Source: an uncultured delta proteobacterium
Lineage (GTDB): Bacteria > Desulfobacterota > Binatia > Binatales > Binataceae
Reading direction: 5' to 3'
Length of the DNA stretch: 64,000 bases
Assembly (NCBI GenBank): GCA_963774665.1
Contig: CAVZGB010000020.1
Location: 226,797 to 290,796 of the forward strand
Shown: one piece after another, positions 3,486-59,639 of the stretch
Position numbering within the stretch: the stretch's first letter is position 1
How the letters are laid out: each line of letters starts with the position of its first letter
Program-made: the position numbers and the translations under genes
Notes under the pieces: model-generated
Databases searched by the model: none
Told to the model about the DNA's origin: nothing
What the model saw: only the letters and a program-made list of their open reading frames with translations

Positions 3486-4319
3486 CTACGCGCGCAGCAC
3501 GACGATGCCGTCGCGGATCGCGAGGCGGCCTTCGCCGCTGAGCGTCTCGAAGAAGATGGCGGTGCCTTCGCGCGCAAGTACTCGTATTGTCAGCATCGAG
3601 GGCATTGTCACCATCGCGCCGAAACGTGCCGCCACTCTTTCTATTCGCGCAGGATCCTTGCCCGCCTGGCTCTCGACTATGCGCGAGACTGCAAGTGCCA
3701 GCGTTGCGGTTCCGTGCAGGATGATTTCGGGCAACCCGGCTGCGCGCGCGACCGACGCGTCGGTGTGTATCGGATTAAAGATTCGCGCGCACTCCGTGTA
3801 TATGTGCGCCATACCCGCCGGCACATCCACCTGGCATTCCAGGAGCGGCTCGCCCTCCTCGACGATCGGCGGCTCCGGCGAGGGCGCAAGCTTCGCCGGA
3901 AAATCCGGTCCTTTGACTTCGACGCCGCGATAGATCGCGCCGTACCAGCTCGTGCACACCGGCTTGCCTGCCGCATCGACGGTGTCGAGCCGCGTGACCA
4001 TGTATGCGCCCGGCTTCCGCCGCTCGACGCCCGCCACCGTGAGCTGCGTGGTCAGGCGCTCGGGTGGCCGAATCGCTCGATGCAGCACGGTGTCATGCGT
4101 CGCATGCACCCCGCGCATCGCCTCGTCGCGCGTAAGCGAGGTGGATTTTTCGAACTGCGCGCGCATCGCGACCTGCACCGGCCATTCGAAGCAGACCGGG
4201 AACATCGGATGCGCAATCACTCCGCCGAACGGTGTCCATGTAGCAGGGAATCGAGTCGCCGAGCGCGGCCGCGTACGCCATCGTCCAGCGCGAATCGATC
4301 TCGCTGACCATTGGCGCAC
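3486..4319 (-). CDS. MaoC-like (R)-specific enoyl-CoA hydratase / double-hotdog dehydratase
   Basis: C-terminal MaoC motif NPIHTDASVARAAGLPEIILHGTATLA. The N-terminal 38 residues are Arg-rich, so the true start may be at 4205. Confidence 0.65.
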   Translation of the reverse strand: MRQWSARSIRAGRWRTRPRSATRFPATWTPFGGVIAHPMFPVCFEWPVQVAMRAQFEKSTSLTRDEAMRGVHATHDTVLHRAIRPPERLTTQLTVAGVERRKPGAYMVTRLDTVDAAGKPVCTSWYGAIYRGVEVKGPDFPAKLAPSPEPPIVEEGEPLLECQVDVPAGMAHIYTECARIFNPIHTDASVARAAGLPEIILHGTATLALAVSRIVESQAGKDPARIERVAARFGAMVTMPSMLTIRVLAREGTAIFFETLSGEGRLAIRDGIVVLRA

Positions 4320-7469: not shown

Positions 7470-7559
7470 GGAGGGGTGGCCGAGCGGTTAAAGGCACCGG
7501 TCTTGAAAACCGGCAGGGATGAAAGTCCCTCGTGGGTTCGAATCCCACCCCCTCCGCCA
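7470..7559 (+). tRNA. tRNA-Ser (anticodon UGA)
   Basis: Cloverleaf with acceptor GGAGGGG/CCCCTCC, D-arm GCCGAGCGGTTAAAGGC, anticodon stem CCGGT/ACCGG with loop CTTGAAA giving anticodon TGA, a long variable arm, T-arm GTGGGTTCGAATCCCAC, discriminator G and CCA. Confidence 0.85.
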
Positions 7560-16864: not shown

Positions 16865-17326
16865 GCACACCTCGCTTCTAGCCATCTAACGGGGGCGTGC
16901 CGTCGTTAACGGCCTCCGGCTGCCGCGGATTGCGCAACTGGCCTCGACTCGGTGTTCTTGAAGTACGGTATCGCATAGCGCCCTATGAACTTGATGGTGT
17001 CCATGATGTAGAAACTAAAGACCGTGAGGAGCCGTCTGAATTCCTGGGTGCCAGGCGTTAATTCCGATTTCAATTTGTGGCTCGCATATTTCGTCTCATC
17101 AGATGCACGGAATGTGCCGTTAGCGAAAAGTGCGCTGGAGTCATTTCCAGTGCGCGCAGGCCAGAATTTGTCGCGTCACTGGCGCGTATGGATACATCCC
17201 GGTGTTCCGAACGGAGCCACTGCATCGAATCATCCGTGGCTGGTCCCACCTCAGAACTTCGCGCTCCAGTAGATCAAACGTATTGAGTCTTGAAGCCAAG
17301 CGACGTTAAAACTATCAACCGAATGG

Positions 17327-18142
17327 TTGGTAGGTGAATGTTTAGCTGATCGCCAAGTCCACCGCACATGGCACGCGACGTGCTGTCCTCGCTGGCCGTT
17401 CAACGGAGAGGAGGAATCGTCGCGAGTCGTGCTGCAAGATTTGCTTCCAAAAAATGTCTCGACCTTCGGCGGTGATATCGACCATGTCTTCTGGCTGATC
17501 TTCTGGATCGTCGGGATTTGGTTCGTCGCGGCTGAGGGCGTTCTTCTCTATTCCATCATTCGCCACCGAAAGAGAGCAGGTGCGCAGGCCACGTACTTGC
17601 CCGGCAACACGGCGCGGCAACTCGCGTGGGTGCTGATTCCCGCGCTCGTAGTGCTTTGCCTGGATCTGGGCATCGACCGCGCCGGCGCGAGTGCGTGGGA
17701 CCGGGAAAAAGGCACTCCGCCGGCGGGCGACGTCGTTGTGCGAATTACTGCCAAACAATTCAACTGGAACTTCACCTATCCCGGACCTGATGGAAAGTTC
17801 GGCACCGCTGACGACGTCACGAGCGAGAACGACTTGCACGTCCCGGTTGGCAAGGTGGTGCGGTTCGAACTGCAATCTGAAGACGTCATCCACAGCTTCT
17901 TCGTCCCTGATATGCGGCTGAAGCAGGACGTGGTGCCGGGGCGGACGATTCGCGGCTGGTTCGAAGCGACGAAAACGGGCATCTACGAAATCGCATGCTC
18001 GGAGCTATGCGGATTCGGTCACTACTCGATGCATGGGAACGTTATCGTGCAAACGCCCGCTGAATATGCCGGTTGGCAGCGCGAGACGTGGCCGAGTCGA
18101 ACCGCCGCCAACGATGCGGTCAAGGGAACAGAGACAAGATGA
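17327..18142 (+). CDS. ctaC: Cytochrome c oxidase subunit II (aa3-type)
   Basis: Two TM helices and the CuA motif H...CSELCGFGHYSMHG; no CxxCH. Confidence 0.85.
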   Translation: MVGECLADRQVHRTWHATCCPRWPFNGEEESSRVVLQDLLPKNVSTFGGDIDHVFWLIFWIVGIWFVAAEGVLLYSIIRHRKRAGAQATYLPGNTARQLAWVLIPALVVLCLDLGIDRAGASAWDREKGTPPAGDVVVRITAKQFNWNFTYPGPDGKFGTADDVTSENDLHVPVGKVVRFELQSEDVIHSFFVPDMRLKQDVVPGRTIRGWFEATKTGIYEIACSELCGFGHYSMHGNVIVQTPAEYAGWQRETWPSRTAANDAVKGTETR

Positions 18143-19848
18143 TGGAAGTCGCAGATTCTCACGCACAGCCGGCCGGCTTCATCCGACGCTACGTGTTCTC
18201 AACCGATCACAAGGTGATCGCGAAACAGTACCTGCTGCTCAGCCTCGCGATGGCGCTGATTGGCGGATTCACCTCGTACCTGATCCGGTGGCAGCTCGCG
18301 TGGCCGGAGACCGACATCCCCGGATGGGGCCCGATTGGCCCCGACAACTACAACGCGATCATCACAATGCACGGCACCGTCATGGTGTTCTTCGTGGCGA
18401 TGCCGCTGCTGCTTGGCGCTTTCGGCAACTACCTTATCCCCTTGATGATCGGCGCCAACGACATGGCGTTTCCGCGGCTCAACATGATGTCTTTCTGGAC
18501 GCTGTTCACCGCTTCCGTGGTCTTGACGATCTCGATGTTCGTGCCGGGAGGTCCGGCGGCGGCGGGATGGACCAGCTACGCGCCCCTATCCGACAATCCG
18601 ATCTACACCGGAGTCACCTGGGGGCAGAATCTCTGGATACTCGCGGTCGCACTCGAGTTCGGCTCGTTCCTAATGGGCGGCATCAACTTCCTGACGACGA
18701 CGCTGAATATGCGCGCGCCGGGAATGACATTTTCACGGCTTCCGCTGCTGGTCTGGATGGAAATCACGGCGGCCGTCGTGTTTTTGCTGTCGGTCGGCCC
18801 GCTGATCGGCGGCGCGCTGATGCTGCTGATGGATCGTACGATGGGAACGAGTTTCTTTCGTGCTGACGGTGGCGGCGATCCGCTGTTATGGGAACATCTG
18901 TTCTGGTTTTTCGGACATCCCGAGGTTTACGTGGTAGCGCTGCCGGGGTTCGGAATAATGCTCGAGGTAATGCCGGTGTTCGCGCGCAAGCCAATCTTTG
19001 GCTACCGCACGATGATCTGGTCGACGATAGCGGCGGGCCTGCTCAGCTTTGTCGTATGGGCACATCACATGTTCGTGAGTGGGATGGATCCGCGCCTCGC
19101 GACTCCGTTCAGCGTTACGACGATTCTCATCTCAGTTCCTTTTGCGATCCTTGTATTCGCGATGATCGCGACTGTGTGGCGTGGCGCGATCGTTCTTTCA
19201 ACTGCGATGCTTTTCGCGTTGGGCGGACTTGCGACTTTTATCATCGGCGGAGTGACGGGGATTTTCCTGGGATCGGCCAGCACCGACATCTTCCTTCATG
19301 GTACCTACTTCGTCGTCGCGCATTTCCACTACACGCTCTTCCCGGTGACGTTCTTCGGAGGCTTTGCTGGTCTCTATTTCTGGTTCCCGAAGATGTTCGG
19401 CAGAATGATGAACGAGACGCTGGGCAAGATTCATTTCTTCTTTACGTTCGTGTGTTTCAACTTCGTCTTCATTCCGCTGTTCCTGGCTGGCCTAAAAGGC
19501 AATCCGCGCCGCATCTATGAAACGAGTTCGTACGACTTCCTGAAGCCGGTCCAACACATTCACGTTATCGCGACGATCGCCGCGATCGGCTTACTAATCG
19601 GACAACTCCCTTTCATCATCAATTTCTTTTACAGCATGATGCGTGGCAAAATTGCCACTTCCAATCCGTGGCAAGCCAACACGCTCGAGTGGACGACCGA
19701 CTCGCCGCCGCCGCACGAGAACTTCAGGACGATGCCGATCGTCTACCGTGACCCGTACGAATACAGCGTGCCGGGCGCGCCCAGTGACTGGATTCCACAG
19801 AACGAACCACCCGAGCCGATCTATCCGATCTCTGCGGCCGCAGATTGA
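18140..19848 (+). CDS. ctaD: Cytochrome c oxidase subunit I (A-family)
   Basis: GHPEVY, HH and WAHHMF motifs and 12 TM helices. ATGA overlap with subunit II. Confidence 0.9.
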
Positions 19849-19874
19849 TCGTGGCGGAGTGCGAAGGGGAATAA

Positions 19875-20480
19875 ATGAGCACAGCAGTTGAGACCGCGTC
19901 AGCGGAAATGCGAGTCGGCTACGAAGCCGCGCTCTCGCCGAGCGGCAAACTTGGAGTCTGGTGGTTTATCGCGTCGGAAATCATGGTCTTCGGCGGCCTG
20001 ATCGGCTCATACGTGCTGTTCAGAGTGGCGCACGGAGGATGGAACGACCAGGCATCGCATGTGAACTGGCGCCTGGGCGCGATCAACACGCTGGTCCTCG
20101 TGACGAGCAGCCTTACAATGATCCTCGCGCTCAACGCCGTGCGCATCGAGCGACGACAGCGCGCCGCGAAATTTCTGCTGATGACCGTGTTGCTCGGCCT
20201 TACCTTCCTCGGCATCAAATCGATCGAGTACACGCACGAGCTCAGAGAAGGTTTCACCCCGACCAGCGGGATGTTCTGGTCGTTCTACTACATCATGACG
20301 GGCCTTCACGGAGTCCATGTGCTCGGCGGGATCATCTTGAATTTGACACTGTACATTGCCGCCGTCCGCGGCACTCTATGGTCCGGGAACAGGAGGAGCC
20401 GAGTCGAGTTCGCGGGACTGTATTGGCACTTCGTCGACGTCGTCTGGATTTTCCTTTTCCCGCTGCTTTATCTAGCTTGA
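19875..20480 (+). CDS. ctaE: Cytochrome c oxidase subunit III
   Basis: Typical CoxIII helices (WWFIASEIMVFGGL...). Confidence 0.85.
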   Translation: MSTAVETASAEMRVGYEAALSPSGKLGVWWFIASEIMVFGGLIGSYVLFRVAHGGWNDQASHVNWRLGAINTLVLVTSSLTMILALNAVRIERRQRAAKFLLMTVLLGLTFLGIKSIEYTHELREGFTPTSGMFWSFYYIMTGLHGVHVLGGIILNLTLYIAAVRGTLWSGNRRSRVEFAGLYWHFVDVVWIFLFPLLYLA

Positions 20481-20491
20481 GGCTGAGTGAG

Positions 20492-20794
20492 ATGAATTCG
20501 AACGAACCTCTCGGAGTAACGGCTGAATCTCTCGATCGCTCGTCGATCATTATATGGATCTGGCTCGTGGGCTTGCTCGGCGCAGGTATGATGGTCTTCA
20601 CGCTGCCAATTCCGCGAATACCAGCGCTGCTGCTGATTTTCGGGATCGCCGGAATCAAGGCCACGCTAGTGCTGCGCGACTACATGCATCTCAGGCGGGA
20701 GAGATTGCTCATCTATGCGATCGCATTGACGCCGCTCCTACTCGCGATTGCGCTGGCGCTGGTGCTGATTCCAGACATCGTATTTCGCCGCTGA
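20492..20794 (+). CDS. Cytochrome c oxidase subunit IV (prokaryotic)
   Basis: 101 aa with three TM helices directly after subunit III, and a GAGG ribosome-binding site. The ORF track shows only a longer out-of-frame ORF here. Confidence 0.6.
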   Translation: MNSNEPLGVTAESLDRSSIIIWIWLVGLLGAGMMVFTLPIPRIPALLLIFGIAGIKATLVLRDYMHLRRERLLIYAIALTPLLLAIALALVLIPDIVFRR

Positions 20795-20803
20795 CGGATC
20801 TCA

Positions 20804-21037: not shown

Positions 21038-21276
21038 CCAAATCGGGCGCGCGCTCGATCCAGCTGAGCACCCAGCTCAGGAATTAGGGCAACCGAATCA
21101 GCCCGAGTTGGACATCGCTTAGCCTGGTGAGTGAGAATCGAGCGCATGGCAGACTGGTTCGATTCAGAATGATTCGGGATGTTCATTTGCTGGAAACACT
21201 GCAGCCAGCGCGGACTTGAGCTGTCGTGGCCGCTGGTTGGCTGGGACGTAGATTCAGAATTCTTTAGCGACATGAG

Positions 21277-22551
21277 TCATGTCCCGCGACGCACGAAGTT
21301 AATAAACAAATCCACGGTCGTGCCGACTCCATCTTCATGACGAATCCGCTCGCCGAGAGCGGAAGCGCGTTGACGCATCGCAGTGTCTGATGTCGCTTGA
21401 CGAATTGCGTCGGCGAGGAGTTCGGCGGTGAGCTCGCGGAACGGAATCGCGCGAGGCCCCACTCCGAGCGCCTCTATCCTGCTCGCCCAGTTCGGCTGGT
21501 CCGCAACAAATGGCGTGACGATCGACGGCACTCCTGCGCGAAGGCCGGCGCCTGTCGTGCCGGCGCCTCCATGGTGAACGACTGCGCTCATGCGAGGGAA
21601 AAGCCAACTATGCGGAACGCTCTCAACACCCAAGGCATATTCCGGCAGCTTGCGATCCTCGCCGATGCCCGCCCAACCCGACAGCAGAACGCCGCGCTGA
21701 TGCGACAACTCCAGCGCCTTGAGTATCAGTTTCAGCGTGTCCTCGGCGCTGCCGCATGGCATGCTGCCGAAGCCCACGTACACCGGCGGAGGTCCGCTCT
21801 CCAAAAACGCGACCAGATCGCGCGGAGGCGTCCAGCCCGGCGGCGGATCGGAGAACCAGAATCCCGTGACGTGGATGCGATCGGGCCAATCCGCGGGACG
21901 CGGAATCACGGTTGGGCTGTAGGCGTAAAAGAGCGGCGTGCGTTCCAGCTGGCGTGCGGAAGGTCCCAACAATGGCAGTCGTGGAAGGCCCAGGAGCTCA
22001 CCACGCATCTTGTTGTCAAAATTCCGCGCTACCTGCCAGATGAATTGTTCCGTGATTCGCCAAAGTAGCGAATTGATCGTCGTGCCGCGATCCTTTCCAC
22101 CGCCGATAAGAAAACTGGGGAAGGAAGACGTCCTTGTAAGCGGCATGAACATCGCGGCCGCGGAGGGGACGCCAAGTTTCTCCGCGATACTGTAAAAGGG
22201 AATCCAGCTGCTCTTGTAGATGATCGCGTCGGCGCCCTCGACGGCGCTTATCGCATCGGTATCGAGCCCCTGAAGGAACGCCTTTCTCTGGTTCGCATCC
22301 GAGGCCTGCTTTACGATCATCCGGAACATGTTGCCGGAGTCGATTGCCGTCGCCACCTCCTCATTCCTCAGCAACGACTTGTATGGATTCCCCAGCGCAG
22401 CGAACTCGATACCGTACGACGCCGCGAGGCCGGCGAAGTCGGGCCGCGCCGCGAGTTTGACCGTATGCCCTTGCTGCTTGAAGCGCGCGGCGAGCGCGAC
22501 AAAGGGTTGAGTATCGCCCATCGCGCCGACCGTCAGTAGCGTTATGTTCAA
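21277..22551 (-). CDS. Glycosyltransferase family 1 (UDP-glycosyltransferase, MGT type)
   Basis: N-terminus MNITLLTVGAMGDTQPFVALA and a C-terminal HHGGAGT...PFVADQ UDP-sugar motif. Confidence 0.85.
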   Translation of the reverse strand: MNITLLTVGAMGDTQPFVALAARFKQQGHTVKLAARPDFAGLAASYGIEFAALGNPYKSLLRNEEVATAIDSGNMFRMIVKQASDANQRKAFLQGLDTDAISAVEGADAIIYKSSWIPFYSIAEKLGVPSAAAMFMPLTRTSSFPSFLIGGGKDRGTTINSLLWRITEQFIWQVARNFDNKMRGELLGLPRLPLLGPSARQLERTPLFYAYSPTVIPRPADWPDRIHVTGFWFSDPPPGWTPPRDLVAFLESGPPPVYVGFGSMPCGSAEDTLKLILKALELSHQRGVLLSGWAGIGEDRKLPEYALGVESVPHSWLFPRMSAVVHHGGAGTTGAGLRAGVPSIVTPFVADQPNWASRIEALGVGPRAIPFRELTAELLADAIRQATSDTAMRQRASALGERIRHEDGVGTTVDLFINFVRRGT

Positions 22552-22578
22552 TTTACGCCCACGAACTTGAACCCACCA

Positions 22579-22700
22579 TCACTCAGGTGATTGCTCGCAT
22601 AAAGATGTGAAAGAGCCGCCGAAACTAGACGGGATGTCGAGAGAGAGCTGAAAGGGAATGGGTAGCGGGACGGAGGAACGCCTTGTGTCTGCAACGATCC
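22579..22700. repeat. Conserved non-coding element, copy A
   Basis: About 80% identical over roughly 120 nt to 26415..26535 in the same orientation, with shared blocks TCACTCAGGT, TTGCTCGCATAAAGATG, GAGCCGCCGAA, GAGAGCTGAAAG and CTTGTGTCTG. Confidence 0.5.
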
Positions 22701-22867
22701 GTTCCGCGCACCCTCGCGCCTTTCCAGGTTCGCACCCATTAGCTAGCCCGTCCAAGCAAGATACCCAGACATGTCTGCGAAAAGGTAGCAGCAACGCGCG
22801 CTTCAGCGTTAGGCGAGTCTCGGAATTCGTAACTAAGGACTGTTCACCAGTTTTAAGTAGCGACACT

Positions 22868-24529
22868 CTAAGGATAGAGCAGACCCGCGGTCGTGAGGCG
22901 GGGCGGGAAGTGTCCGAGGATGAAAGGTCCGTAGACCGCGACCACCAGGATGACCGAAGCGAGGACCCAATAGCCAAGCTGATCAAGCCGCGGCTGCCAC
23001 CCGATGATCGATGGCGTCTGAACTGTCGCCGTGAAGGGAAGGTCACGCGACTCGGTCTTTTTGCCGGCAACTATTGTCATCACAAGGATAAAGAAGAACA
23101 GCATAGCGGCCGTGAACATCAGCGTGCCGCCGACGCCTGTCATGATTCCTGGAATCTTCCACGCAGCCAGGTCGTAGGTGGCATGCACCATGTCTGTGCG
23201 CCGCGGCATCCCTTCCATGCCGCCTGCCATCAGGCCGCGCGAGAAAATCATGACTCCGAGGAAATACAAAAACGCCTGGAACAGCGCGGCGCGCGACGAC
23301 CACAGTTCGCGCCGCTCGAGATACGGTACCATCCAGTAGGCGATTCCCATGTAGGAGAGGGCCACCGCGCAACCGATGGTGAGATGAAAATGTCCTGGGA
23401 TAAACGCTGTGTTGTGAATCTCCATATTCATGGTGTAGCTCGCGTTCATCAGACCGGAGATGCCGCCTAGCAGGAACGCGATCATCGCGAGTACTTGGGC
23501 CGCGACCGAAGGATCGCTCCACGGAATCGCGAAGAACCATCCGATGAGCCCGTTGCCACCGCGCCGGCGTCCGCCGACTTCGAGCGCGTACATCACCGAG
23601 AACGCCGTCATCAGGCTGGGAAAGAAAATCGCGAAGGTCACGCTCGCGACGGCGAATTTCAATTTCCCCGAAATTCCTGGATCGACGAACTGATGATGAA
23701 AACCGACGGGGACCAACAGAATGAAAAGCAGGAAGGCCACGCGCGTCAGCGTATCGCTGAACAGCACACCGCCGGCCTGCCGCGGGATCAGCCCGTACCA
23801 CGAAACGTAAATCGGCAGCAGCCAGTAGTACACGATGGGATGGCCGGTGAACCAGAATAGTGTGCGATCGAGCATCGGATCGACGCCCGGCAGCCATCCG
23901 AGCGACCATGGCAGCAGGAACACCACGACCTCGACGGCCAGGCCGACCGACGCGATGTCCCACATCACGTATGTCGCAATCGACATGAAGGCGAGCAGCG
24001 GCACTCGCTCACCCGGATGATTCCTGCGCCATGCGCGCAGCGCAAATAGCTGTGCCGCCGAGGTGAGCCACGTGCTCACCACCACCAGCGCGAGGCCCAG
24101 GTAAAAAGTCCAGTCCGCCTCGAGCGGCGGATAGAAGGTGTACAGGACCGAGGCCTTGCCGGCGAGCATCGCGTACGCCGCCATCAGCGAGCCGATGAGT
24201 AGAGTCCAGAACGCCGCATGGAGGAGCGCATCGTTGAGCTTGCGCCCGAGTCCGCGCGCGGTAGTCAGCACGAGAAAGCCGTTGGCGAACGCTGTTGGCA
24301 GCACCAGCGCGTTCAGCACGCCGTGAATCGTGAGTCCCTGGTAGTACGAATGTACGACTGGATAGTACTGCTCGATGTTCACGCGCGCGTAGCCGAGTGC
24401 CTGGCCGAGTCCCATGATGACGCCGATCGCAAGCAGCGCGAAGCCGAAGTAGATGTTCCACTTGATAACGTTCAACTGGTTCGGCGGCAGATCGAAGCCG
24501 GACGGTTCTGCAACGATGGACGTGGTCAC
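22868..24529 (-). CDS. Haem-copper oxidase subunit I (ba3-type, B-family)
   Basis: GHPIVY, HH and WAHH-type motifs. The GTG start overlaps the subunit II stop (GTGA). The longer ORF up to 24883 has no Met or ribosome-binding site. Confidence 0.8.
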   Translation of the reverse strand: MTTSIVAEPSGFDLPPNQLNVIKWNIYFGFALLAIGVIMGLGQALGYARVNIEQYYPVVHSYYQGLTIHGVLNALVLPTAFANGFLVLTTARGLGRKLNDALLHAAFWTLLIGSLMAAYAMLAGKASVLYTFYPPLEADWTFYLGLALVVVSTWLTSAAQLFALRAWRRNHPGERVPLLAFMSIATYVMWDIASVGLAVEVVVFLLPWSLGWLPGVDPMLDRTLFWFTGHPIVYYWLLPIYVSWYGLIPRQAGGVLFSDTLTRVAFLLFILLVPVGFHHQFVDPGISGKLKFAVASVTFAIFFPSLMTAFSVMYALEVGGRRRGGNGLIGWFFAIPWSDPSVAAQVLAMIAFLLGGISGLMNASYTMNMEIHNTAFIPGHFHLTIGCAVALSYMGIAYWMVPYLERRELWSSRAALFQAFLYFLGVMIFSRGLMAGGMEGMPRRTDMVHATYDLAAWKIPGIMTGVGGTLMFTAAMLFFFILVMTIVAGKKTESRDLPFTATVQTPSIIGWQPRLDQLGYWVLASVILVVAVYGPFILGHFPPRLTTAGLLYP

Positions 24530-25008
24530 TTGACCACTACCTTGCCGGACATGGTGTGATGCAGGCGGCCGCAATATTCGTGGCAAATCAGGAGGTATTC
24601 GCCGCGTTTGGTAAAGCGGTAATCGAATTCGGAAACCTGTCCGGGAATGAGCATCATGTTGACGCGGGTGCCGACGATGAAAAATCCGTGGATCACGTCT
24701 GACGACGTAGCGACGAAGCTCACGTCGGCGCCGACTGGAACGTCGATCTCGTCGGGGGTGAAGGACCAGGTCTGCGCTATCACCACAGCCTGGTATTTCC
24801 CCGGTGCGATTTCCTGCACTCCTATGCGATCGAACGGAGGGGTTTTGCGCAGTACCTTGCGAAGCTTCTGGCCCACGTCGCAATAGATCGTCCCGCTATG
24901 CGAAGGGAGATGAACGCCCATCGCGACGCTGCCATAGGCAAGCGCACCCAGGAAAACCACTAGAACCGCGGCGCATGCTGCGAGGAAGGCCTTCTCGTAC
25001 CGCTCCAT
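24526..25008 (-). CDS. Haem-copper oxidase subunit II (ba3-type, single TM)
   Basis: 160 aa with one TM helix and the CuA site H...CHEYCGRLHHTM. Confidence 0.85.
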   Translation of the reverse strand: MERYEKAFLAACAAVLVVFLGALAYGSVAMGVHLPSHSGTIYCDVGQKLRKVLRKTPPFDRIGVQEIAPGKYQAVVIAQTWSFTPDEIDVPVGADVSFVATSSDVIHGFFIVGTRVNMMLIPGQVSEFDYRFTKRGEYLLICHEYCGRLHHTMSGKVVVK

Positions 25009-25149
25009 TTATCTGTCCAGCAACACCCAGAACATCGCCGCCCAGCCCACGGCCAGCACCAGCATGTAGGTTCCCAATATGAAGATGGTGCCTGTAGGAG
25101 GAGGGATTTTCTCTTCGGAGAATTCGTCGCGCGATGTTTCAGTTGCCAT
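25009..25149 (-). CDS. Small single-TM subunit, ba3 subunit IIa-like
   Basis: 46-aa ORF not in the supplied ORF track: MATETSRDEFSEEKIPPPTGTIFILGTYMLVLAVGWAAMFWVLLDR. It has an AAAGGAGAGG ribosome-binding site, and its stop abuts the subunit II ATG (TAAATG). Confidence 0.45.
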   Translation of the reverse strand: MATETSRDEFSEEKIPPPTGTIFILGTYMLVLAVGWAAMFWVLLDR

Positions 25150-25290
25150 GCGCCCCTCTCCTTTCGCAGTTACGGCCCCAAGCGATTGGCGCTCAGACTC
25201 GCGATCGATCGCCTACTCTCATCTGTGCCGGCTTGTCCAGCGATCCGGGGAAACTTTCGCTAAAGGCCATTCTGGCCCCGCGATGCAGGC

Positions 25291-25830
25291 TTGCAGCGCG
25301 CACTGAATGATCGGCCGTATAGTTGCGAGTGTAACGCGTATAGATACTATGCCAACCAAATAATATGGACGGACCTGTCCTGGGACTTCGATGCTGAGGT
25401 TCCGGGCGCGTTCAGATATTACTGCAGTGCGCCGCCGATGGTCACATATATCGGCAATGGGATGTATGGGATGACGATCATCGATCCGAAGGGCGGCTGG
25501 CCCAAGGCGTCGGGTGACAGCAAACGCATGATGGATGAACGGCCAGACTTCGTTGTGTTCAACGGCATCATCGAAAAATATGGGGACCATCCGATTCCTA
25601 TAAAGTGGCGAGTTGGAACGGATTTTCTTCGTCACTGCCGGACCCAACCGGACTTCCAGGTTTTACGTTGTGGCGCCGTGTTCAGATCCGTCTAACGCAG
25701 CGGCAATCCCGCCAATGCCTTTCACCTGGTGCAGAGTTTTTGGGGTGGGGCCAGGAGATGGCGCTATCTTCGAGTTCCGCATACACGAGGGCCGCGACTA
25801 CCCATTGGCGGACTGCCGGTGGTTGACGGC
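25291..25830 (+). pseudogene. nirK: Remnant of copper-containing nitrite reductase (nirK)
   Basis: AFRYYCSAPPMVTYIGNGMYGMTII and DFVVFNGI align with the NirK domain-1/2 junction. The N-terminal ~120 aa are missing, there is an internal deletion, the type-1 copper His ligands are replaced (H to Y), and NRTSRF and FEFRIHEG remnants continue in another frame after about 25600. Confidence 0.5.
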
Positions 25831-25920
25831 GGCAAGTTGATTGGTATCGTGACGTCGAATGATATGCTGAGAGCATTTCTCAGCGTAGTCGAGGCGACCC
25901 AGAAAATCCTTGAGCAATAG
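25729..25920 (+). pseudogene. CBS-domain C-terminal fragment
   Basis: GLPVVDGGKLIGIVTSNDMLRAFL matches the end of a CBS pair, but no N-terminal portion is present. Confidence 0.35.
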
Positions 25921-25928
25921 GAGGCAAA

Positions 25929-26426
25929 ATGACACGTACACTCGAACGCCTCTGCAAGGGCCCGAACCTGGCCGGGAACCTAGCTGTCCGACGTCTGCAA
26001 GCGATGAAACTAAATCGATCCCTTGTACTCTTGTTGTCCGGATTTCTCCTCGTCTCGTCGAAAGCTGTGGCCGGCGATGTTGCCCGAGGCCGAGTATTGT
26101 ATCTGCGTAACTGCGCGTCGTGTCACGGCGTTAAGGGTGATGGAGAGGGCCCCGTCGCTGCGCAGCTCAAGACTCATCCCGCGGATCTGCGGTTGCTTTC
26201 GAGCCGATATGGAAACCCTCTTCCGGAAGATCAGATAGCCCGCTTCATCGATGGTCGCGCCGACATTGCCGCCCATGGTCCGCGCGACATGCCAGTATGG
26301 GGGGAAGAGGTATGGAAGTATCCTGAGGGCGAGGGACCGAACAGTGAGGTGACGTCTCGCGTCGCGGACCTGGTCGCCTACCTCCAGTCCATTCAGGAAC
26401 TGCAGCATCACGCGTCACTCAGGTAG
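25929..26426 (+). CDS. Class I monohaem c-type cytochrome
   Basis: AGGAGG ribosome-binding site, long signal peptide, CASCHG haem site and a distal Met region. Confidence 0.8.
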   Translation: MTRTLERLCKGPNLAGNLAVRRLQAMKLNRSLVLLLSGFLLVSSKAVAGDVARGRVLYLRNCASCHGVKGDGEGPVAAQLKTHPADLRLLSSRYGNPLPEDQIARFIDGRADIAAHGPRDMPVWGEEVWKYPEGEGPNSEVTSRVADLVAYLQSIQELQHHASLR

Positions 26427-26535
26427 TTGCTCGCATAAAGATGCGAGGGAGCCGCCGAAGATAGACAGGCTGTCCAGCGAGAGCTGAAAGAGAATGGCGA
26501 AGCGCGACAGAGCATCGTCTTGTGTCTGTCAAATA
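26415..26535. repeat. Conserved non-coding element, copy B
   Basis: Homologue of 22579..22700. It begins inside the last codons of the cytochrome c gene. Confidence 0.5.
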
Positions 26536-26641
26536 TGGTATCAACGATTGCATAAAGGCTGATCGAGAAGCGGCCCGGCGCCCTGAAGCAGTACGTATCT
26601 CTCCCGCTCACATTTCTTCCAGACGCTCCAGGGCTGGGACA

Positions 26642-27103
26642 TTACTTCTTGCCTCCGGGATGCGCAGCCGGAAACTCCTCTCGGACAGTCAACACCGGGC
26701 ACGTAGCCTTGCGCACCACAGCTTCGGTAACGCTACCGAGGAACATCCGCGCGAGGCCTCTCCGCCCATGCGTTGCCATCACGAGTAGATCGGGCTGATG
26801 CTTGGTCTGCGCTCCTAGGATCGAAGCAATCACGTCGCCGGTATAGACATGCGTTTCGTGCTTCAACCCGCCGAGTTTCTGCTTCGCAATGTCAGCCAGC
26901 TTTGCTTGGGCGTCCTTTTCCTGATCTTCGTAAAGCGCCACCGGCGGCGGGACTTCGCCAAGTGCAACGATCAGTGACAGCACATGCACCAGGATGATGC
27001 TGCTGCCAAGGTGCCGTGCGATCTCGACCGCCTTGTCGAGAGCAGCCAGAGAGTTCTCATCGAAGTCGACGGGACAGAGAATCGTCTTGTATGGGAATGC
27101 CAC
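26642..27103 (-). CDS. Universal stress protein (UspA family)
   Basis: MAFPYKTILCPVDFDENS...ATHGRRGLARMFLGSVTEAVVRKATCPVLTV. Confidence 0.85.
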   Translation of the reverse strand: MAFPYKTILCPVDFDENSLAALDKAVEIARHLGSSIILVHVLSLIVALGEVPPPVALYEDQEKDAQAKLADIAKQKLGGLKHETHVYTGDVIASILGAQTKHQPDLLVMATHGRRGLARMFLGSVTEAVVRKATCPVLTVREEFPAAHPGGKK

Positions 27104-27436
27104 AGAATTGAACTACCTCCCTTAAGGATTGACGATATATTGAAGCTCAATTCCAGTTTTCCTGCCATTCGGAGAATATTCCCTTTTGCAGCCGAAGAGA
27201 TCAGGGAATTTGACGCGGAGAGCAGTTCGCATCAGACTGCATCATCCGTACGTGAAAGCAGGCGATCGCCATGCGTTCGAAACGACCAATGAATTCGTGC
27301 GGATCAGGTTGTGAGGAGGGGCAACCGACATCGTCTGCCTGATACCGGCCGCGAACTTGTGTCTGCTCTGCAGTGTACGATAAGGATGGAAATCTGAACT
27401 TCGCGCGCGAACGATGAAAGACAAGTGGGATAAGAA

Positions 27437-35021: not shown

Positions 35022-36149
35022 ATGCCATCGAAAGATATCGTTGTCGACGCTGACGGACACATCCTCGAGCCGCCCGACCTGTGGGAAAAATATCTCGAAG
35101 CAAAGTATCAGCCGCATTCAATCAAGGTGGTGAAAAACGAGAAGGGCCTCGAATGCCTGCAATATGACGGCAAACTCTCGCAGATGGCGCAGCCCGGGTT
35201 CCTCGCCGCACTCGGGGGGATGGGCAAGGAGCAGGATCAACTGCGCCCCGACGCGGAGCGAACCTACGTCGGGAGCGCGCCGTTCGGCTCGATGGATGCG
35301 AGCGAGCGCGTCGAGCTGCTCGATCGCGAGAACCTCGCCAAGGCGGTGCTCTATCCGACCCTGGGAATTTTGTGGGAGGCCGAAGTCGAGGACGTCGAGC
35401 TCTCGCAGGCCTACTGCCGCGCTTACAATCGCTGGATCGCCGACTTCTGCCGGCCCTACAGCGATCGCCTGATCCCGATCGCGCATTTGTCGCTCGGCGA
35501 TCCTCAGGCTGCCGCCGCGGAACTCGAACGCGCCGTCAAAGACGGCTGCCGCGGCGCGTTCGTCGCGCCGTTCACGATCACGCACAAGCCGCACGGCCAT
35601 CCCGATCACGATCCGGTTTTCGCGATGGCTGAGAAACTCGACGTGCCGTTCGCGATTCATCCGACCTTCGAACCCAAGGGGCTCAATCGCGCGCGCTTTC
35701 ACGGGATGGAGCGGATGCCGCTGCTGGGCGTGATTGCGTCGCAGATTCTGCAGCAGCCGCTCTCGACATTTTTCCAGTTCGGCGTCTTCGACAAGTTTCC
35801 CAAGCTGCGGGTGGTGATCCTCGAATCCGGTTCCTCTTGGCTCGGGTTCTGGATGGATCGCATGGATGAGGGCTACGAAACCTGGATCGGCGGCACGCTG
35901 CCGCTGAAAAAAAAGCCGAGCGAGTACGTGCGCAAGCAGGTATGGATCTCCGGCGACCCCGACGAGCAGGCCACCGCTTACGTGATCGATTACGTGGGAC
36001 GTGATCGCTTCTTCTGGGCCAGCGACTTTCCGCATCCGGACCACGGCGGCAAATACCTCGACGCGCTCGAAAGGATGGTCGCACCGATGGGACCGGAGGC
36101 GCGCCGCGGCATCGTCGGCAAAAACGTCATCGACTGTTACAGACTGTAG
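35022..36149 (+). CDS. Amidohydrolase-2 family metal-dependent hydrolase (paralogue 1)
   Basis: Amidohydro_2/ACMSD-like pattern VVDADGHILEP...HPDHG...WASDFPHPDHG. Confidence 0.85.
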   Translation: MPSKDIVVDADGHILEPPDLWEKYLEAKYQPHSIKVVKNEKGLECLQYDGKLSQMAQPGFLAALGGMGKEQDQLRPDAERTYVGSAPFGSMDASERVELLDRENLAKAVLYPTLGILWEAEVEDVELSQAYCRAYNRWIADFCRPYSDRLIPIAHLSLGDPQAAAAELERAVKDGCRGAFVAPFTITHKPHGHPDHDPVFAMAEKLDVPFAIHPTFEPKGLNRARFHGMERMPLLGVIASQILQQPLSTFFQFGVFDKFPKLRVVILESGSSWLGFWMDRMDEGYETWIGGTLPLKKKPSEYVRKQVWISGDPDEQATAYVIDYVGRDRFFWASDFPHPDHGGKYLDALERMVAPMGPEARRGIVGKNVIDCYRL

Positions 36150-36160
36150 GATCAGAAAAG

Positions 36161-37285
36161 ATGCCGGGAAATCAGCTCATCATCGACGCCGACGGGCATA
36201 TCCTCGAGCCGGTCGACATGTGGGACAAATACCTCGAGGAAAAATATCGCGCGCGCGGAATCAAGATTAAGCGCGATGACAAGGGGATGGAGTTCCTCGA
36301 GTACGATGGCAAACCCGCGCAATTGATGCGCAGCGGCGTGCTGCACACGCTTGGCGCGATGGGCCGTAGTGCTCAAGAGATGAAGCCCTCGGCGGAGCGC
36401 ACCTACGTCAACTCCGCGCCGTTCGGATCGATGGACATGAAGGAGCGGCTTAAGCTGCTCGATCAGGACGGCATCGACAAGGCGATTCTCTATCCGACCA
36501 TCGGGCTGTTGTGGGAAGCCGAAGTCGAGGACCCGGAACTCAGTAACGCTTACTGCCGCGCCTACAATCGATGGATCGCGGATTTCTGCCGCGACTCGGG
36601 CGGGCGTCTCATTCCGATCGCGCATCTCTCGATGCTCGATGTTCCCGCCGCCGTCGCCGAGTTGGAGCGCGCGGTCAAGGACGGATGCAAGGGCGCCTTC
36701 GTCGCGCCTTTCAACCACTTGCGCAAGGCGCACGGTCATCCTGACTTCGATCCGCTGTTCGCGAAGTTCCAGGAGCTCGACGTTCCATACGGAATCCATC
36801 CGACCTTCGAGCCGGCGTCGCTCGCGTCGCGCCGCTTCAGCGGGCTGGGCTCCTCGATTTGGTATCATCAGGTGACCGCGTGCTACGGCGCGCAGGTCGC
36901 GTTCACGACGCTGTTCTCATTCGGCGTGTTCGACAAATTTCAGAAGCTCAAAACGGTGGTGCTCGAATCCGGCGGCGGGTGGATCGGTTACTGGGTGGAC
37001 AGGATGGACGCGCTGTACGAGGTCCCGATAAATCGCGCGCCGCTGAAAAATCCGCCGAGTCATTACATCCGCACGCAGAGCTGGATTTCCGCCGATCCGG
37101 ACGAGCGCGCGCTGGCCGGGCTAATCAAATTTGTCGGCGACCGATTCTTCTGGGCGAGCGATTTTCCGCATCAGGATCACGGGCGCGAGTACATGAACGA
37201 GCTGAAGGGGCTGCTGGCCGAGATGCCGGCGGCCTCGGGGGCAAAACTCGCGGGTGAGACAGTCGCTAGTTTGTATAAAATTTGA
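36161..37285 (+). CDS. Amidohydrolase-2 family metal-dependent hydrolase (paralogue 2, tandem)
   Basis: About 55-60% identical to the upstream paralogue, with the same motifs and 11-nt spacing between the two genes. Confidence 0.85.
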   Translation: MPGNQLIIDADGHILEPVDMWDKYLEEKYRARGIKIKRDDKGMEFLEYDGKPAQLMRSGVLHTLGAMGRSAQEMKPSAERTYVNSAPFGSMDMKERLKLLDQDGIDKAILYPTIGLLWEAEVEDPELSNAYCRAYNRWIADFCRDSGGRLIPIAHLSMLDVPAAVAELERAVKDGCKGAFVAPFNHLRKAHGHPDFDPLFAKFQELDVPYGIHPTFEPASLASRRFSGLGSSIWYHQVTACYGAQVAFTTLFSFGVFDKFQKLKTVVLESGGGWIGYWVDRMDALYEVPINRAPLKNPPSHYIRTQSWISADPDERALAGLIKFVGDRFFWASDFPHQDHGREYMNELKGLLAEMPAASGAKLAGETVASLYKI

Positions 37286-57999: not shown

Positions 58000-59639
58000 C
58001 GATGAACCGGCGGATAAAATCTGTACCGGGCCGGCGCGGTAAATATCTGCGCTTTGCCGCAGGCGTGTTCGCAATTGCAGTTGGGCTTGTCGCGATTGGC
58101 CCTTATCCGGCCGCGGCTCAGACCAGCCTGACCGGGCTGCACGTCGGGACCGACATAACCGTCCAGCTGAACAGCACCATCCTGACGCCCCAGCAGGTAC
58201 AGTGCTATAAGTTTCCCGCGAGCATGGGCACGGCACTGACGCGCTTTGGGCCGCTCCCCGCGGGCGTGGACGTTGCCGCTTATTGGCCGTTCGGGATACT
58301 GGTCGTTATCAGTACCACTGCCGCGCTGCCGACGGACGGCAGCGGAGATACCGTGACGGTATCTCCTCGGGACGTCGCGTTGTTCAACTTCGACTCTCAA
58401 TTTTACTCGCCGACGCTCTTTTTCCAGGGATCGAGCAACGGAGTTCCCGACGGCACGCAAATCGACTCCCTCGGACAGGACTCGCTGGGAAAACTGCTGC
58501 TCTCGTTCGATGTGACTGTCAGGTTACCCAAGGCTGGCGGTGGCACGCTGACGGTCAAGCCTGCTGACCTCGTCTCGTTCGACGGCTCTGCTTACACGCT
58601 GGTTTTCGACAGCACCGCTGCCGGCATCCCGGATGGAATGATCCTGGACGGCGCTTCGCTGCTGCCCAATGGCCACTTGCTGATGGTGTTCAACCAATCC
58701 GGCTCGCTCGGCGGGACTGATTTCACGCCCACGGACGTGCTGGAATATAATCCCGCCGCCAACAGTTGGTCGATCTCATTCAACGGCGCAGCCCAGGATG
58801 GTTGGCCGGACGGCAGCATGATGCGCGGCGTTGTCGGAGATGAGGCGTCGAGCGCAAGCGACACCGCCACTCCGACGACGAAGGCGACGCCAACCGTAAC
58901 TGCGACCGCAACAGCTACAGTGATTACCACATCGACCGGGACCGCAACGCCAACTGCAAATGCGAGTGCAACAGCCACGAGGACTGCCACGTCGACCAGA
59001 ACCGCGACGCAGACGGCAACTGCGACGGCGACTTCGACCGCAACTGCGACGGCAACCGGGACGGCAAAGGGGACTGCTACCTCGACCGCAACCGCGACTC
59101 CGACCGCAACGCCGACGACGAGGGCGACTCCAACCGTAACTGCGACCGCAACAGCCACGAGGACCGCCACGTCGACCAGAACCGCGACGCAGACGGTAAC
59201 TGCGACGGCGACTTCGACCGCAACTGCGACGGCAACAAGGACGGCGACCAGGACGGCTACGCCGACCGCAACCGCGACGTCATCCAAATCGCCTACGCCG
59301 ACTGCCACGCCTACTCCGGGAACGCTCAAGGTCAAACCGAAGACGCTCAGGTTCCCAAAGACGACTGTCGGAAAGACCAGTGAACCCAAAAAGGTCAAGG
59401 TATCCAATCCAAACGGCAAGAACCATCAAGCGCTTCCGGTCGTGATCGAGATGATCTCAGATCCGGGAGTGTTCACGCAGACCAACGACTGCCCAGCCAG
59501 TCTGGAGCCCGGCACGTTCTGCGCCATTTCGGTCAGGTTCAAGGCCAGCGCCGATATGAAACAGACCGGAACACTCAAGATCAGCGATAATGCGCACGGC
59601 GGTATCGCGTCGGTCTCGCTGCGCGGCACCGGCCAATAA
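58000..59639 (+). CDS. Secreted protein with a Thr/Ala/Pro-rich tandem-repeat linker and a C-terminal choice-of-anchor-D-like domain
   Basis: Signal peptide, N-terminal domain, about 150 aa of T/A-rich repeats, then LKVKPKTLRFPKTTVGKTSEPKKVKVSNPNGKNHQALPVV...CPASLEPGTFCAISVRF. Confidence 0.65.
58870..59300 (+). repeat. Tandem DNA repeat encoding the TATATRTATSTRTATQT linker
   Basis: A ~240-nt unit (58885..59124) repeats from 59125, with nested ACNGCGAC sub-repeats. Confidence 0.6.

Follow-up and report, generated by a model that had tools for sequence, protein, structure and literature searches.

A repeated non-coding element in an uncultured Binatia genome is probably a relic of the 3' end of a cytochrome c gene

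Small RNAs (sRNAs) derived from 3' untranslated regions (3'UTRs) are represented in enterobacteria by CpxQ, SdhX and DapZ. Integron attC sites occupy gene 3' ends, overlapping the stop codon; they span about 60-140 nt and contain the core sites R'' and R' (RYYYAAC / GTTRRRY). These two systems, together with gene remnants left by segmental duplication and with dispersed repeats, are the ones with which we compare a short element that occurs twice, as copies A and B, in a 64,000-nt stretch (hereafter the window) of contig CAVZGB010000020.1 from an uncultured member of the Binataceae. The element probably represents the end of a cytochrome c gene together with its downstream flank, with copy B in situ and copy A an older orphan, which would make the pair a relic of segmental duplication. 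The lineage belongs to the uncultured phylum Binatota (PMC8262859). The features that carry the argument are the following.

22579-22695, plus strand: copy A, putative orphan duplicate of the cytochrome c 3' end and flank, starting TCA CTC AGG TGA
26415-26532, plus strand: copy B, putative native cytochrome c 3' end and flank, starting TCA CTC AGG TAG
25929-26426, plus strand: cytochrome c gene encoding 165 aa, assigned from Pfam (Cytochrome_CBB3 and Cytochrom_C) and an alignment of homologues
26430-26447, plus strand: hairpin H1 (CTCGCAT-AAAG-ATGCGAG), directly 3' of the cytochrome c stop codon
21277-22551, minus strand: glycosyltransferase (GT) of the GT28/UDPGT family, with a TTG start; copy A lies upstream of it in antisense orientation

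Like gene remnants and segmental-duplication relics, the element comprises the last codons, stop codon and flank of a source gene, one copy being native and the other lacking the gene body; its occurrence is patchy and lineage-restricted, and pseudogene fragments and strain-level indels surround it. Unlike them, the orphan copy A persists across lineages whose GT differs by about 10%, and it diverges slightly more slowly than four-fold degenerate sites. The likeness to 3'UTR-derived sRNAs resides in copy B, which lies at the stop of a respiratory-chain gene, in sense orientation and with a stem-loop immediately downstream; in contrast to these sRNAs, the element has neither an intrinsic terminator nor a comparatively supported seed or covariation, and copy A stands behind no gene. 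With attC sites the element shares its location at a gene 3' end, the overlap with the stop codon and a similar length, but it differs from them in that the RYYYAAC / GTTRRRY core sites were seen at neither end on direct reading, that its ends are not palindromic, and that no integrase was found nearby and no cassette array is present. Repetitive extragenic palindromes and bacterial interspersed mosaic elements (REP/BIME) and miniature inverted-repeat transposable elements (MITE) are likewise short, non-coding and repeated in intergenic DNA; the element departs from them in having two copies and no palindromic unit, terminal inverted repeats or target-site duplication.

The two copies are in the same orientation and show 83.3% identity over 114 nt with one gap (blastn, E = 9.7e-29), in agreement with the identity of about 80% given by the initial annotation of the window, a reading of the letters made prior to any search. 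MAFFT, a repeat search and blastn all place the pair where that annotation had put it, with an ungapped core of 83 nt at 86% identity (22579-22661 versus 26415-26497; MAFFT and repeat search). The annotated starts at 22579 and 26415 stand, while the annotated ends at 22700 and 26535 lie slightly too far out: homology stops at about 22695 and 26532 (CTTGTGTCTG+4), which gives a repeat unit of approximately 115-118 nt. The end sequences of this unit are TCACTCAGGT and CTTGTGTCTG, and one of its ends carries TCACTCAGGTAG. Copies A and B differ at 21 positions in 115 nt, and an identical run of at least 17 nt arose in 47% of simulations, so that the long conserved blocks to which attention had been drawn are uninformative. 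Blastn, which had been proposed as a check, returned no further hit in the window below E = 0.1, and two conserved blocks allowed up to three mismatches were matched in the window at the A and B sites alone, against 0.06-0.12 matches expected from shuffles.

The connection with cytochrome c is found at the beginning of the element, whose first 12 nt, TCA CTC AGG TAG in copy B, are the last Ser-Leu-Arg codons and the stop codon (26424-26426) of the cytochrome c gene. Copy B is composed of these three codons and the stop (26415-26426), followed by about 106 nt of 3' flank. The C-terminus ...HHASLR is kept in cytochrome c homologues down to 68% identity, including those of genomes without the element, and cytochrome c loci from four other genomes (L025-L028, in our numbering of the loci collected from relatives) all end in TC[ACGT]CTCA[AG]GTAG TTGC, with the full element present in none of the four. 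One of these is L025, whose cytochrome c is 82% identical, which possesses an intact pair of a CBS-domain gene followed by cytochrome c, and which shows no duplication; it has the stop codon and the first 28-40 nt of the flank in common with the element (nhmmer, E = 1.2e-6). Since the element starts with conserved cytochrome c codons, and since L025 contains the stop and the proximal flank, the element can be identified as the 3' end and flank of cytochrome c; and since L025 contains them without a duplication, copy B would be the native flank. Two properties expected of a gene remnant are found in this way: a coding part of an identifiable source gene (S-L-R-stop), and a native context in a relative devoid of the duplicate (the CBS>cytochrome c pair of L025).

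Hairpin H1 is the sole stem retained in every copy. An equivalent stem (CTCGC...GCGAG) directly follows the cytochrome c stop in L025, and the counterpart of H1 in copy A (22594-22611) contains a G.U pair and a mismatch that weaken it; helix 2 is paired in 91.5%, with one-sided changes only. The initial annotation described copy B as beginning within the last codons of cytochrome c and filling the convergent gap up to the universal stress protein (USP) gene. The first part is correct, the element starting inside the last four codons if the stop is included, while the second is not, as 109 nt (26533-26641) separate copy B from the USP stop codon. Among the three identities that were offered for the element, a REP/MITE-like repeat, an sRNA and a 3'UTR module, the last comes nearest: its position fits copy B, although copy A is not located behind any gene. 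The flanking features needed for what follows are listed here.

22696-22821, no strand assigned: tail adjoining copy A, non-coding and common to the relatives' USP>CBS>tail-element>GT loci
26533-27306, no strand assigned: USP-carrying segment of 774 nt, starting exactly at the edge of copy B and containing the USP gene (26642-27103, minus strand)
25438-25920, plus strand: chimeric truncated CBS-domain remnant immediately upstream of cytochrome c, with an in-frame stop in the window
26503-26523, plus strand: 21-nt island within the element, matching USP codons 5-11 (27070-27090) in reverse complement

Copy A is located in the region 5' of the minus-strand GT gene, as had been annotated, with 28 nt between it and the TTG start. 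It lacks the cytochrome c body and abuts the GT start region, and the homology specific to GT, which extends to five other GT contexts, breaks off at 22553-22574, 5-26 nt short of the first base of copy A. Because GT orthologues of 82-93% identity in these five contexts have no element, copy A is dispensable, which is a third property of a gene remnant. A leftward continuation of the A/B homology into cytochrome c coding sequence was considered and rejected; it reaches about 55% with gaps and lies in the GT's own conserved start region. On its other side, copy A continues into the tail, and the window matches relatives L001 and L006 from 21245 to 22808 (blastn); L003 has neither element nor tail. 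In L021, copy B is followed by 38 tail-like nt, which align to the tail of copy A with 20 of 21 nt matching and one gap (0 of 2000 shuffles scored as high), so that a 22-nt piece of the tail is found beside copy B in that strain too; this tail-like flank indicates that the duplicated unit was once longer.

The element is found only in a narrow subclade of Candidatus Binatus, where its distribution is patchy. An exact-pattern scan of 185,579 species genomes yielded one locus, in a Candidatus Binatus metagenome-assembled genome (MAG; L001), and the same scan of the Joint Genome Institute (JGI) metagenomes also yielded one (L002); each holds an orthologue of copy A, arranged as USP>CBS>tail-element>GT. 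Among further loci collected via homologues of GT, USP and cytochrome c, the element was present once each in six contigs with this arrangement (L006-L011, L007 being the same contig as L002) and twice each in L021 and L022, two strains 98.5% identical to the window. It was absent from the GT orthologues in the five other contexts mentioned above (L003, L004, L005, L023 and L024) from nine USP loci (L012-L020), which represent two other contexts, and from three of the four other cytochrome c loci. Copy B shows 76-85% identity to every A-type copy, and the A-type copies show 83-99% identity among themselves, from which it follows that the duplication predates the split of the A-bearing lineages. 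The initial annotation would have considered its proposal refuted by two copies arising from a recent local duplication; two copies and a local duplication are indeed what we found, but the duplication is old. Copy A shows 4-6 differences between L021 (7812-7951) and the window (22571-22709), two strains with GT genes of 99.7% identity. At several of these positions the variant base is that of the CBS-type lineages, a hint of a small patch of recombination.

The element does not encode a protein, in line with its original description as non-coding. Minus-strand ORFs (open reading frames) of 63 and 67 aa overlap the two copies and are in the same frame across the core, and a small-ORF reading was tried; it was rejected on the indels of 1 nt and 7 nt by which orthologous copies differ and which show that the element is not coding. 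The A/B differences display no codon periodicity (4/5/3 by phase), translations of the element gave no Pfam hit even at E = 10, and a HMMER search of the 67-aa ORF of copy B against 1.84 billion proteins recovered nothing but a repeat protein and P0362, a chimeric ORF call in which a CBS domain runs straight into the element in a tail-less variant.

We propose the following course of events. Transcription of cytochrome c would run into copy B, which would form the untranslated end of the transcript, with the H1 stem-loop after the stop probably marking or stabilising the mRNA 3' end. Copy A would be an older paralogous copy of the flank that kept the last three codons and the stop and lost the cytochrome c body, and a rearrangement would have joined this remnant to the GT start region, antisense to GT. 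The unit originally duplicated may have comprised the element and some of the tail, at least about 160 nt in all, before later indels trimmed it, and in the strain represented by the window the USP-bearing segment would have replaced the tail beside copy B. As a repeat, the element would be without a function. A small and weak excess of conservation suggests that copy A could by now belong to the region upstream of GT, where it may contribute passively to the GT promoter or leader; such a role would account for its slightly slower than neutral divergence.

This last property is one of several points that weigh against the relic reading. The element shows 91% identity when the window is compared with the CBS-type loci, whereas four-fold degenerate sites of GT are 77-81% identical; between L001 and L006 it is 94% identical, compared with about 88% for third codon positions, the tail and the pseudogene (88.5% for the tail and the CBS pseudogene). 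As the element is slower than these putatively neutral sites, some constraint on copy A is possible; a 7-nt deletion in the element is tolerated in most lineages. Furthermore, no relative was found that keeps cytochrome c beside GT, and the rearrangement behind copy A is for this reason inferred and not observed. The search of the source genome covered the 64 kb of the window, and the copy number of two is the figure for that window. Finally, the match of the 21-nt island to USP is left unexplained by a cytochrome c relic.

How the duplication arose is the subject of the first alternative, in which movement of a cassette left the copies as scars or used them as substrates: a circular or linear segment with cytochrome c, the CBS fragment, COX2, COX1 and one copy of the element would have recombined into a resident copy, leaving a 3.7-kb insert between direct repeats, and these repeats could later mediate its excision. 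We regard this as unlikely, though partly compatible with the cytochrome c origin of the element. The genes concerned are the CBS remnant and cytochrome c listed above and the following two.

about 22868-24529, minus strand: COX1, assigned from Pfam and from gene calls in the 98.5%-identical L021 and L022
24526-25008, minus strand: COX2, assigned in the same way

In favour of a cassette, the direct repeats bracket a discrete gene set, the 3.7-kb segment between A and B containing COX1, COX2, a small ORF, the truncated CBS fragment and cytochrome c. The relatives' USP>CBS>tail-element>GT loci lack this gene set, and their homology with the window resumes at 26534, the outer edge of copy B, and at 22808. 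Breakpoints of several variants lie a few bases from the right edge of the element (L021 versus the window, the CBS|element fusion P0362, and the loss in L003), but they are partly circular as evidence, the edge being defined by the end of the homology. Genes of insertion sequence (IS)-type transposases or integrases do occur near the CBS-type loci, but the neighbouring genes of the window contain no integrase or recombinase domain, and neither recognisable core sites nor terminal inverted repeats are present. The predicted excision product, USP-element-GT, was seen in no locus, and with copies about 83% identical and copy B equidistant from the A-type lineages, such an event would have to be old or its donor divergent.

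The USP / CBS / cytochrome c / COX / GT region is documented as a rearrangement hot spot with many gene fragments in this clade. The CBS remnant joins about 110 unrelated residues to the last approximately 45 of a CBS-pair protein; in L021 its reading frame is open over 160 aa, an intact 131-aa CBS gene occupies the same place in L025, and the CBS gene is also broken in the USP>CBS loci. The USP-carrying segment is present in the window and in L022 and missing from L021, where the 38 tail-like nt occupy that position. A single unambiguous order of rearrangements connecting the COX1>GT, USP>CBS>tail-element>GT and window types was not reconstructed. In L021, the site of the USP absence spans 3939-3978, beginning at the edge of copy B, and the USP gene is intact in the window; that of L022 (3412-3878) carries several insertions of 1-2 nt, which may reflect decay or long-read assembly errors. 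Two sets of haem-copper oxidase genes are located less than 8 kb apart, a COX2-COX1-COX3-COX4 operon (approximately 17300-20800, plus strand) and the COX2-COX1 pair (22868-25008, minus strand), which is preceded by a 46-aa ORF; the GT gene lies between both sets. The IS-type transposase or integrase (rve) genes of the relatives lie a few kb from the USP>CBS>element>GT loci, at 3829-4854 in L001 and 12458-13640 in L006.

A functional RNA is distinctly doubtful. Under this alternative, the cytochrome c transcript would give rise to a 3'UTR-derived sRNA, with a second copy antisense to the GT leader, acting by base-pairing with, for instance, the USP mRNA. Copy B does begin at the stop codon in sense orientation, and an sRNA starting at or after the stop of its parent gene in the same orientation would fit it, copy A having no such parent. 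Wobble changes (G-C to G.U) in two stems are tolerated on the plus strand only, divergence is slightly below neutral, and the folding of copy B is slightly better than that of shuffles (z = -1.6 and -2.1); for copy A the values are +0.8 and +1.8, and it folds no better than shuffled sequence. A stretch of 21 nt could pair with USP codons 5-11, with 19-20 of its 21 positions complementary.

Against this, no RNA family was recognised. Over the whole window, tRNA alone reached the Rfam gathering threshold, and permissive scans of both loci remained at chance level (ZEB2_AS1_3 at E = 8.8; Hairpin ribozyme at 17.6 bits versus a gathering threshold of 65), so that the original statement that the element matches no riboswitch was borne out by the Infernal/Rfam-type scan it had called for, at either threshold. 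The sole Rfam match of the window, an 87-nt tRNA at 7470-7556 (plus strand), has a long variable arm and scores 62 bits versus RF00005. The covariation analysis that had also been proposed gave a negative answer: RNAalifold on nine distinct copies, on both strands, found no pair changed on both sides and a covariation term of about 0. The minimum free energy structure of copy B is paired at 77.6% across all copies, as compared to 77.4% in shuffles, and its helices 3-5 are broken in A-type copies, with helices 3 and 4 pairing in B copies only. Neither a sigma-70-like promoter nor a terminator (canonical hairpin-plus-U-run terminators only) was found on either strand at either locus. The suggestion of an sRNA or a structured 5' leader is not supported by these results, the compensatory pairs being absent, the fold of copy B being lost in A copies and the element being absent in five GT contexts. 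As to the proposed target, the 7-nt deletion cuts the USP-complementary stretch in most A-type copies, L021, a strain devoid of the USP gene, keeps the stretch unaltered, and third-position conservation of USP codons 5-11 is ordinary (0.93 versus a gene mean of 0.88), revealing no special constraint. The specific version of this alternative, a lineage-specific regulatory RNA that a cytochrome c / haem-copper oxidase transcript would release from its 3' end and whose 21 nt would pair with USP codons 5-11, we consider highly improbable. If it were true, the copy antisense to the GT leader would link glycosylation of the cell envelope in uncultured Binatia to their respiratory status.

The same 21 nt underlie a further alternative, to which we attach a low probability: on the minus strand, the right-hand two thirds of the element would be a decayed 5' fragment of a USP paralogue, fused by deletion to the cytochrome c 3' end. 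The island is in the correct orientation and is 90-95% identical to USP codons 5-11 (19 of 21 nt in copy B, 20 of 21 in the copy of L001). The match has nhmmer E-values of 0.012-0.039, and by Smith-Waterman 0 of 500 shuffles scored as high; corrected for a search of the whole window, its significance is about 0.01-0.04. An in-frame translation offers, by direct reading, a few more identities (KT.LC...F...S...HL..S). Similarity to USP is nevertheless confined to the 21 nt, with none on either side, and a looser alignment takes gaps totalling 8 nt; at the protein level, no Usp signal was obtained from Pfam at E = 10, and no USP from the 1.84 billion proteins. The counterpart of the island in copy A (22666-22686) is weaker, most relatives having lost 7 nt there. 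The island may be a short conversion patch, the trace of an old USP fragment, or the product of chance.

The suggestion that the element is a dispersed repeat of REP/BIME or MITE type is largely refuted and hardly credible, even though the element is short, intergenic and present in more than one copy: a host gene supplies the coding sequence at one of its ends, direct reading shows no reverse complementarity between the ends TCACTCAGGT and CTTGTGTCTG, a target-site duplication is missing (flanks CCA|...|CAAC versus GCG|...|TCAA), there is no unit-length palindrome and no stable hairpin forms in copy A, an nhmmer profile built from the copies and run over the window and 30 loci (about 400 kb from relatives) hit the expected sites only, with at most two per locus, the collection scans gave orthologues only, and scans of viral contigs gave chance 17-mer matches only.

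Identifying the twice-occurring, conserved-looking block as a probable orphaned cytochrome c tail, and not as a new riboswitch, sRNA or mobile element, avoids a false call of an RNA family, and the rearranged neighbourhood may be of help to annotators of these MAGs or to users of synteny there. Should the small excess of conservation in copy A be real, it would provide a minor example of a gene remnant co-opted upstream of another gene. Beyond annotation the result matters little, as it concerns what appears to be an ordinary relic of genome rearrangement.

Two other repeats were noticed in the window. At 58863-59320, 15 overlapping direct-repeat copies have start-to-start spacings of 12, 18, 30 and 42 nt (multiples of 6), and form a short-period, low-complexity tandem repeat that is probably coding. 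At 35253-37225, two adjacent paralogous genes with approximately 72-76% DNA identity and an offset of 1136-1139 nt look like a tandem duplication.

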